DNA of 64,000 bases from an uncultured Candidatus Saccharibacteria bacterium. GTDB lineage: Bacteria > Patescibacteriota > Minisyncoccia > Phycocordibacterales > DATDWN01. Every line of letters begins with the position of its first letter. Within the stretch, counting starts at the first letter, position 1. A program made the translations under genes and the position numbers. Positions 32,629-33,719 of this stretch are shown one piece after another. The notes under the pieces were generated by a model, which made no database searches, was not told the DNA's origin, and was given only the letters and a program-made list of their open reading frames with translations. The DNA lies in assembly GCA_964468795.1 (NCBI GenBank), contig CAYXWL010000001.1, positions 232,246 to 296,245 of the forward strand, written 5' to 3'.

Positions 32629-33719
32629 ATGAAAATTTATAAGAATTTATATTGGTCAATAATTTCTCCTCAAGCACTATTTAAAGCTTGGGAGGTGTTT
32701 AAATCGGATAAGCGAAATAAGATTGATGTTTTGGAGTTTGAAAAACATCTTGAGAAAAATATTTTTGGTTTGTATAGGGATTTGAAAAATAAAAGATATA
32801 AACATGGAGCATATAAAGGATTTTGGATTCACGATCCAAAGATAAGAAGAATTCACAAGGCCACAGTTCGGGACAGAGTACTCCATCACGCAACTTTTTC
32901 TGTGCTTAATAAAATATTTGAACCAACTTTTATTACTGATTCCTATTCCTGTCGTATTAACAAAGGAACTCATAAGGGAGTGGAAGCCATAGCTAATATG
33001 CTTAGAATTGAGTCGAGAAATAATACTAGAACTTGTTATGCTTTGAAATGCGACGTGAGAAAATTCTTTGACTCTATTGATCACCAAGTACTCTTGGACA
33101 TTTTGAAAAGAAAAATCAAAGACACTAAAACGGTTTCTCTTCTTGAGGAGATTGTTAATAGCTACGATTCGTGCGGCACGTTGCGAGAGAGAGAGAGAGA
33201 GAGAGTAAAACGCTGTCGCTTTTTACTATGAATAACAAAGGGGTGCCTATCGGCAACCTGACTTCCCAGATTTTTGCCAATATTTATATGAATGAGTTTG
33301 ATCAATTTGTTAGGCATGAACTTAAAGTAAAATATTATGCAAGATATACAGATGATTTTGTCATTATATCAGAAAGCAAAGAATACCTTGAGGGACTATT
33401 GCCAAAATTGCAAAAATTTTTATCTGAAAAATTAAAACTTGAGCTACATCCAAATAAAATCACTATTCGTAAATACCACGAAGGAATAGATTTTCTAGGT
33501 TACGTCATATTTCCATATTACAAACTACTGAGAGCAAAAACGAAGAGGAGAATACTAAGAAATATACGAAAAAAGATGAGGAGTTTCCAAGAGGGACATC
33601 TCTCTAAAGAAAAACTAAACAGCAGTTTACAGTCTTATCTTGGAGTTTTGTCACATGCTGATACTTATGAGTTAACACAAAATCTCCAAAATCAATTTTG
33701 GTTTTGGATGAAGGAATAA
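32629..33719 (+). CDS. DGR reverse transcriptase, reading frame broken at a (GA)10 tract
   Basis: Two track ORFs (32629..33231, 33171..33719). Motifs RDRVLHHA, DVRKFFDSIDH, VPIGNLTSQIFANIYMNEFD (the DGR-type IGxxxSQ) and YARYTDDFVI. Confidence 0.85.
33185..33205 (+). repeat. dinucleotide simple-sequence repeat (GA)10+G inside the RT gene
   Basis: Counted directly. Removing one GA unit joins the two RT frames (..RERERE-SKTLSLFTMNNKGVPIGNLTSQ..). Confidence 0.9.

Follow-up and report, generated by a model that had tools for sequence, protein, structure and literature searches.

Stochastic, heritable, and reversible ON/OFF switching by hypermutable repeats is known from the contingency loci of Haemophilus, Neisseria, and Campylobacter (PMC3315296, PMC5084427, PMC8437040), where perfect tracts differ in length between otherwise identical strains and most loci switch surface structures directly. 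In the phase-variable Type III mod genes, including the (AG)n genes of Mycoplasma (PMC3498834), a perfect tract lies inside the gene for an enzyme; a change in unit number truncates that enzyme, a single unit separates each OFF state from ON, and the effects reach beyond the enzyme. Diversity-generating retroelements (DGRs), such as that of the Bordetella phage BPP-1 (bRT-Avd, 8ub7) and its wider family (PMC5758913, PMC8144416), form a different kind of variation system. These combine a reverse transcriptase (RT) with a characteristic motif 4, an Avd-like protein, and an adenine-specific pair of template repeat (TR) and variable repeat (VR), with the VR at the 3' end of a target gene. Here we describe a DGR whose RT gene is split at a perfect (GA)10 tract. 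It lies in a 64,000-nucleotide stretch (hereafter, the window) of the genome of an uncultured Candidatus Saccharibacteria bacterium (GenBank assembly GCA_964468795.1, contig CAYXWL010000001.1, forward-strand positions 232,246 to 296,245), a member of the Patescibacteria.

The locus has all of the DGR traits listed above, and differs from BPP-1 and the DGR family in that the target gene and avd are inverted relative to the TR and RT. In mechanism, the mod genes are the closest known system and resemble the split RT in each of the respects given for them. Their output is a methylation pattern, whereas the output here would be the capacity to hypermutate a target gene; their hosts are host-adapted pathogens rather than Patescibacteria. 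Unlike in the mod genes, the tract sits in the middle of the gene, between RT motifs 3 and 4, in a loop predicted to tolerate any in-frame length. The classical contingency loci are likewise similar in their perfect, length-variable tracts and in the kind of switching that we propose. In contrast to their direct effect on surface structures, the switch would act one level up, on a generator of diversity, and a new VR would persist after the switch returned to OFF. Contingency loci described in phage genomes (bioRxiv 10.1101/2025.10.21.683753, PMC12633550) are a further case of bet-hedging by slippage outside the classical pathogens, in another type of host and element and with no retroelement or second layer of mutagenesis.

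Phase variation by simple sequence repeats and DGRs are each known; what would be new is repeat-mediated phase variation that acts on a hypermutation system. Reversible mutator switches, in which mismatch-repair genes are inactivated by repeats or mobile elements, also change the supply of mutations heritably rather than a phenotype, and second-order selection can favor their low-mutation state. Mutator switches raise mutation genome-wide, whereas mutagenesis here is limited to one VR of about 120 nt. We found no publication, large DGR surveys included, in which a repeat tract or phase variation is connected with a DGR RT; an earlier remark in Paul et al. 2017 (Nat Microbiol) is possible.

A perfect GA tract splits the reverse transcriptase gene

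The RT is encoded in two overlapping reading frames (Table 1), which cover successive parts of the RVT_1 profile and therefore represent one RT that has been split. The break falls between motif 3 (DVRKFFDSIDH) and motif 4 (VPIGNLTSQ), at the perfect GA tract. Positions 33185-33205 read GAGAGAGAGAGAGAGAGAGAG, that is, (GA)10 plus G, and were reported by Tandem Repeats Finder as a period of 2 with 10.5 copies and 100% matches. The downstream frame is open backwards across the tract, and its actual coding part begins there. No other dinucleotide run of five or more units and no homopolymer of nine or more nucleotides are present in the 64-kb window; in shuffles that preserve dinucleotides, the expected number of GA runs of 12 nt is 0.02. 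With 10 units, the upstream frame ends at a TGA codon (33229-33231), 27 nt past the tract. Rebuilding the gene in silico gave one open reading frame (ORF) of 360-364 aa with 6, 9, or 12 units, a stop 27 nt past the tract with 7, 10, or 13 units, and a TAA stop immediately after the tract with 8, 11, or 14 units. An initial annotation, made from the sequence and a list of its reading frames, had described the two overlapping frames, their switch at the (GA)10 tract between motifs 3 and 4, the stop 27 nt past the repeat and the fusion of the frames with 9 or 12 units, and the lack of comparable dinucleotide tracts elsewhere in the window, all of which were reproduced here. An uninterrupted RT ORF is thus the feature of DGRs without a match at this locus, and it is repaired by a change of one unit.

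Of the solved structures, that of the Bordetella phage bRT (PDB 8ub7_A, E 1.9e-47) is the best match to the repaired RT, and the two align in two blocks (query positions 3-174 and 203-356). The tract sits in an insertion of about 22 aa relative to bRT just ahead of motif 4 (about 28 residues here versus 6 in bRT). In an AlphaFold model of the nine-unit form, the tract-encoded RERERE falls within residues 181-210, which have predicted local distance difference test (pLDDT) values below 50 and no secondary structure. Since this loop is predicted to be flexible, any in-frame length would probably be tolerated. Outside of the tract, the codons of the RT gene are mixed (Glu, 10 GAA versus 11 GAG; Arg, AGA in 13 of 22).

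Tract length and variable repeat differ between near-identical populations

The same organism was recovered in other assemblies. The 200-aa N-terminal RT fragment is present in a public protein collection (P0121), where it is recorded on three contigs. Its exact look-up in the contig index gave no match; the cluster table and the C-terminal fragment led to related contigs. P0121 clusters with a protein of 193 aa that is identical save for its ending in RERERERE, the predicted product of 11 units. Three contigs in the European Nucleotide Archive (ENA) from three assemblies (L001, L002, and L003) have (GA)11 with the same flanks as the window and are out of frame. Compared to the window, L001 (1.9 kb) and L003 (6.5 kb) have no mismatches beyond the one GA unit (11 versus 10). 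Over 6.5 kb, the differences between L002 and the window are confined to the tract (one more GA unit), the TR (one base), and the VR, where L002 has a 3-nt deletion and six substitutions, all six at positions of TR adenines. To judge from these sequences, tract length changes faster than point mutations accumulate, and adenine-directed replacement of the VR is recent, within the divergence of near-identical populations. Since the VR differs at TR-adenine sites between otherwise identical assemblies, the DGR worked recently. The initial annotation had held that ten units in all reads together with an invariant VR would mark a dead pseudogene; between assemblies, tract length differs, and so does the VR.

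The 3-nt deletion in L002 (30878-30880) adjoins AAC-derived codons. Indels next to AAC in TRs have been reported by Wu et al. 2018 and ascribed to slippage of the RT (PMC5758913).

Two further population series were examined. A metagenome scan with a flank from the nearest clade recovered a set of contigs that are 97-99.9% identical to each other and to the genome locus L083. In that lineage, none of their tract lengths (6, 7, 6, 12, 6, and 6 units) is in frame. Two contigs of this series, L123 (6 units) and L124 (7 units), are otherwise distinguished, within the 2.5 kb upstream of the tract, by just seven VR positions, each at a TR adenine, which matches the pattern in the species of the window. 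In the other series, L073 and L095 are identical across 4.86 kb save for the tract (14 versus 13 units), which leaves L095 in frame and L073 out of frame. Both of these RTs contain an in-frame TAG, so L095 is not a functional ON allele, and this RT may be truly decaying. Closely related species mix ON and OFF alleles, with L112 in frame and L097, L102, and L114 out of frame. In the species of the window (10 and 11 units) and in the L123 series (6, 7, and 12 units), all alleles found are OFF.

The tract is conserved in Patescibacteria reverse transcriptases

To look for the tract in other species, we scanned species-representative genomes for (GA)5 followed, after a gap of 18-48 nt, by a degenerate motif coding for PIGNLTSQ. 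At least 119 loci have a perfect GA run at the same position of the RT, and almost all of these are labelled Patescibacteria; all counts of loci given below are among the matches listed. Thus, a repeat at the same position in orthologous DGR RTs, for which the initial annotation had suggested looking, is present in many species. The groups represented include Saccharibacteria, Paceibacterota, Berkelbacteria, Wolfebacteria, Doudnabacteria, Peregrinibacteria, and others. The same pattern had no match in the viral contigs of IMG/VR.

Some tract-bearing RT loci carry other labels, namely Gammaproteobacteria (L014, L029, L070, L073, L089, L095, and L104), Bdellovibrionales (L015, L065, and L115), Actinomycetota (L032), and Syntrophorhabdaceae (L114). 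These may reflect loose ENA labels, binning contamination, or real spread outside of the radiation.

The relation between the two frames was determined by tblastn with the two halves of the window RT, both of which could be placed around the tract in 116 loci, and the frame calls of six loci were verified by three-frame translation. The RT halves are almost always full-length and free of internal stops. Relative to the N-terminal half, the C-terminal half is in frame in 25 of these loci, shifted by +1 in 50, and shifted by +2 in 41. About 78% of loci are therefore out of frame at the tract, with shifts in both directions, while lesions elsewhere in the same coding sequence of about 1 kb are present in about 4%. 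The perfect runs range from 5 to 35 units, multiples of three are not in excess, and among tracts of 5-12 units 17 of 78 are in frame. For 85 out-of-frame loci, the stop codon lies inside the fetched piece; in 82 of them, one unit added (+1 loci) or removed (+2 loci) is enough to restore the entire RT ORF (median 356 aa).

Pieces of 8 kb were searched for TR/VR pairs using BLAST at default settings, with the window as a positive control. An adenine-specific pair was found within the piece in 70 of the 119 loci; as in the window, the TR lies upstream of the tract by about 1.07 kb. Such pairs are about equally frequent in out-of-frame loci (56/91) and in-frame ones (14/25). The RTs that bear the tract are only 32-83% identical, and relatives with at least 75% amino acid identity share the same number of units in just 2 of 37 pairs. 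On the evidence of these comparisons, the tract is old and has been maintained in the DGR RT lineage of Patescibacteria, with the majority of the sampled populations in OFF.

A protein search with the repaired RT retrieved thousands of Patescibacteria RTs, most of which are 349 aa long and lack the insertion. Among the best 120 homologues, 14 have (RE)2-5 at the position of the tract (59-77% identity), and in-frame homologues in general have from one to about eight RE pairs. Two close full-length homologues have a short tract, (GA)4 (P0001, TTGAGAGAGAGTAAG), and an interrupted one (P0002, GAGAGAAAGAG). Such short or interrupted tracts in the closest full-length homologues would be expected for stabilised ON alleles.

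Several genomes have two tract-bearing DGR RTs each (L007/L046, L039/L088, L093/L111, and L035/L049), in one case on the same contig. The paired RTs keep a separate unit number and frame; one pair, for instance, has 10 and 9 units and is +1 in both RTs, and another has 15 and 16 units and is in frame in both. Compound repeats are present in L047, where (TC)6 directly precedes (GA)14, and in L051 and L094, where a homopolymer of eight to nine G directly follows the GA tract. These may constitute a second slippery element at the same site.

Both halves of the reverse transcriptase are under purifying selection

Selection on the two RT halves was estimated from the ratio of nonsynonymous to synonymous substitution rates (dN/dS) in pairs of related species that are both out of frame, which include pairs from L097/L102/L114/L061/L105/L122, L004/L045, and L017/L106. 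In these pairs dS is 0.18 to more than 1, and dN/dS is 0.03-0.11 in the N-terminal half as well as in the C-terminal half, which lies downstream of the frameshift. The low values in both halves indicate that the full protein has been under purifying selection throughout this divergence. It follows that the out-of-frame states are short-lived or leaky rather than terminal.

A proposed switch of mutagenic retrohoming

The locus combines a perfect, unstable repeat inside a gene with polymorphism between otherwise identical genomes and an otherwise intact gene under selection, as is characteristic of contingency loci. The DGR anatomy, the tract polymorphism, the recent turnover of the VR, the conservation of a perfect tract, the random-like distribution of frames, the repair by one unit, and the purifying selection are directly supported by the data, and we consider it likely that the (GA)n tract is a contingency locus within the RT coding sequence at which slippage switches the RT ON and OFF. 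The slipped-strand switch of the DGR RT put forward in the initial annotation thereby gains support from the polymorphism, the VR turnover, the at least 119 orthologous loci, and the dN/dS values.

In the proposed mechanism, slipped-strand mispairing during DNA replication would add or remove GA units. In the ON register (9 or 12 units at this locus), a full-length RT would be made, with the tract encoding a flexible (Arg-Glu)n surface loop before motif 4. Adenine-mutagenic retrohoming into the target gene's VR would then be performed by this RT, together with bAvd and the TR RNA. In the OFF registers (10 and 11 units here), translation would end at or shortly after the tract; the product would lack motifs 4-7, including the catalytic YxDD, and would presumably be inactive, leaving the VR frozen. 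With each OFF state one unit from ON, the switch would be reversible and heritable. Rare ON cells could then explore the sequence space of the VR, and a return to OFF could lock in successful variants. A broader claim seems to us plausible and somewhat favored, namely that the whole Patescibacteria DGR lineage has kept a hypermutable tract over deep divergence and that hypermutation is thereby itself switched stochastically and heritably; most cells and populations would be OFF and have a frozen receptor variant, the VR would diversify in the few cells that are ON, and a return to OFF would lock in what succeeds.

Several observations weigh against a simple switch of this kind. Every recovered contig of the species in the window is out of frame (10 or 11 units) although the VRs differ, and the protein collection contains no in-frame allele of this species (9 or 12 units), the best full-length match being 76-77% identical. 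In the second species series, too, six of six contigs are out of frame, yet the VRs differ. An RT supplied in trans would also count against the switch; no second RT is present within the window, which covers only 64 kb of the genome. The in-frame share across species (25/116) is below one third (binomial p = 0.0075). This under-representation fits selection against prolonged ON states, as does the lower-than-average activity reported for Patescibacteria DGR clade 2 by Roux et al. 2021 (PMC8144416). In the nearest clade, six species with 6, 10, 12, 14, 14, and 15 units are all in the +1 state, in which the N-terminal frame reads GAG followed by TAA, a stop directly past the tract. Random switching alone does not explain this uniformity. 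Finally, frame-shifted Mycoplasma (AG)n mod constructs are weakly expressed in Escherichia coli according to a preprint (bioRxiv 10.64898/2026.04.01.715767), and by analogy the OFF state of the RT may not be fully silent.

Alternative explanations of the split gene

Several of these points are accommodated by a rheostat, in which OFF alleles would yield full-length RT at a low level by transcriptional slippage or by re-pairing of a tRNA two nucleotides away. The DNA would then be mostly out of frame by design, and the tract would set a low dose rather than a binary state; a -2 shift would rescue the +1 state and a +2 shift the +2 state. This explanation, which is compatible with switching at the DNA level, is in our view unlikely. 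It draws support from the out-of-frame state of all assemblies of two species whose VRs changed recently, from the under-representation of in-frame states, and from the leaky suppression of the (AG)n frameshift reported for a Mycoplasma mod fragment in E. coli. In the near clade fixed at +1, moreover, a ribosome paused at the GAG-TAA junction could re-pair tRNA-Glu on the preceding GAG. However, all three frames occur across species (50 loci at +1, 41 at +2, and 25 in frame), and a stop directly past the tract is present in just 17 of the 50 +1 loci. There is no canonical slippery heptamer at the tract, and the RNA of positions 33160-33300 folds no more stably than shuffled sequences (z = 0.45). 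That the DNA itself changes rapidly is also evident from perfect tracts that reach 35 units and from identical strains whose tracts differ in length.

Two more specific candidates were set aside. A single programmed ribosomal frameshift is inconsistent with the lack of one shift direction and with unit numbers that relatives hardly ever share (2/37 pairs), and a structured frameshift stimulator gains no support from the fold stability of the tract RNA given above.

Decay of the RT gene, which the initial annotation had named as an alternative to the slipped-strand switch, would mean that a slippage frameshift inactivated the RT and that the DGR is dying. The window and all related assemblies of its species are indeed out of frame, and extra lesions are present at a few loci (L073 and L095, with the TAG mentioned above, L109, and L040). 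Nevertheless, decay is very improbable given that one unit suffices to repair 82 of 85 out-of-frame loci, in which no other lesion is present, that dN/dS is low in both halves, including the half past the frameshift, that the VR has turned over between otherwise identical strains, and that the tract persists across RTs of only 32-83% identity.

Little credence can be given to the other alternative named there, a sequencing or assembly indel in a gene that is truly in frame. Dinucleotide tracts do show stutter in the polymerase chain reaction, and several loci come from low-coverage or nanopore assemblies. Still, 11 units were found in each of three independent ENA assemblies, and three contigs are on record for the 10-unit protein. 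Furthermore, disruption is concentrated at the tract (about 78% of the 116 loci) rather than in the remaining 1 kb or so (about 4%), and an out-of-frame state is no less frequent in tracts of 5-12 units, whose length is well below that of reads and k-mers.

Translation of the two halves as separate proteins that assemble into an active RT is scarcely credible. Purifying selection on both halves would be consistent with such a split enzyme, and the window has an ATG (33228) between the tract and motif 4, and a product of 163 aa is annotated by gene callers. Among the 91 out-of-frame loci, however, an ATG follows the tract in just 7, a start with an upstream Shine-Dalgarno-like sequence is present in just 11, and 31 have no ATG, GTG, or TTG in the C-terminal frame before motif 4; in addition, the RT is fused in 25 loci and in many database proteins. 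Selection of the repeat solely as an (Arg-Glu)n protein loop with no regulatory role, although in-frame homologues do encode RERERE at this site, is just as hard to sustain in view of the out-of-frame majority of loci, the purity of GA runs up to 35 units in a gene whose other Glu and Arg codons are mixed, the unit numbers that close relatives hardly ever have in common, and the predicted disorder of the loop.

Anatomy of the DGR locus and its surroundings

The locus is a complete DGR with a target gene that contains the VR, a TR, a bAvd gene, and the RT (Table 1). The RT has RVT_1 matches in both halves and a motif 4 of the type found in the DGR lineage, [IV]GxxxSQ. The TR and VR form an inverted repeat of 118 nt with 86% identity. 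All 16 mismatches are at adenines of the copy at 32114, which identifies this copy as the TR and the other as the VR. The VR stops 6 nt short of the stop codon of the target ORF. The last 25 nt or so of the repeat (CGGTCTCGCGTCCTCCCGG) are GC-rich and identical in the TR and VR, and represent a putative boundary similar to the initiation of mutagenic homing (IMH) sequence. The target gene has no Pfam family above threshold. The region of the target gene (30700-31600) has a GC content of 50-57%, compared to about 30-40% around it, a composition foreign to its surroundings.

Table 1 Coordinates of the DGR features in the window
Feature	Coordinates	Strand	Basis
DGR target gene, 311 aa, with C-terminal VR	30849..31784	-	VR location
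VR, 3' end of target gene	30855..30972	-, inverted relative to TR and RT	Inverted repeat partner
TR	32114..32231	+ (RT strand), ~1.07 kb upstream of tract	Inverted repeat I1
bAvd-like accessory variability determinant	32278..32628	-	Pfam PF22296 bAvd, E 5.4e-17
RT N-terminal reading frame, 200 aa, RT motifs 1-3	32629..33231	+	Pfam RVT_1 positions 8-107, E 5.4e-08
RT C-terminal reading frame, 182 aa, motifs 4-7 and thumb	33171..33719	+	Pfam RVT_1 positions 115-205, E 2.5e-15
Perfect (GA)10 tract, then G at 33205	33185..33204	+	Direct sequence, Tandem Repeats Finder

The avd and RT genes are arranged head-to-head, with start codons that abut at 32628/32629 and no intergenic bases between them, an arrangement also present in L002, L003, and L131. 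Transcription of the RT must therefore begin within or beyond avd, and the TR, the antisense strand of avd, and the RT are probably on one transcript. Rfam matches in the window are limited to a transfer-messenger RNA (tmRNA) and two tRNAs, with no RNA family at the tract.

A large serine recombinase with Resolvase, Recombinase, and zinc-ribbon domains (29426-30757, forward strand) adjoins the 3' end of the target gene. L002 and L003 also have it; in L131, the locus of P0001, the gene calls for the 3 kb upstream of the RT do not include it. The DGR may be located on or beside a mobile island. On the other side of the RT, the 5' end of a tRNA-Ser gene (33793-33883, reverse strand) is covered by a perfect 20-nt direct repeat, CACTCTGACACGTCTCCAAT, with copies at 33867-33886 and 34044-34063 that are 177 nt apart. 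The second copy runs on as a diverged tRNA-like sequence called by neither ARAGORN nor Rfam, which may represent either a second, degenerate tRNA or a scar of integration beside the DGR. The window also contains a tRNA-Ile gene with the anticodon TAT (39805-39879) and the tmRNA gene (43147-43534), whose tag peptide is VKNLSKGIASPFGNAFAFSPALA.

Implications

The tract is a property of a DGR lineage, present in at least 119 species-representative loci, rather than a peculiarity of this genome, and the finding is thus larger than the initial annotation had supposed. Annotation pipelines split such genes into two "hypothetical" proteins or partial RTs, and these elements will be under-counted or wrongly scored in DGR surveys that require the RT protein to be intact. 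Estimates of DGR activity in the Patescibacteria clade can be re-read against the state of the tract.

To our knowledge, the regulation of DGR activity is poorly understood. A repeat switch within the RT offers a concrete and testable answer, in the DGR-rich Patescibacteria, to the question of how a well-adapted variable protein escapes being overwritten. If this reading is true, mutagenesis is off by default, it is switched on in a small subpopulation that inherits this state, and the change can be undone. The locus would then be a two-tier device for evolvability, in which a contingency locus controls a diversity generator, and this would explain the low apparent activity of DGRs in the Candidate Phyla Radiation (CPR) as well as the frequent annotation of their RT genes as fragments. 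It suggests a design principle, a tunable stochastic gate, for engineered DGR mutagenesis, and it adds a case of a contingency locus in environmental, non-pathogenic, ultra-small bacteria.

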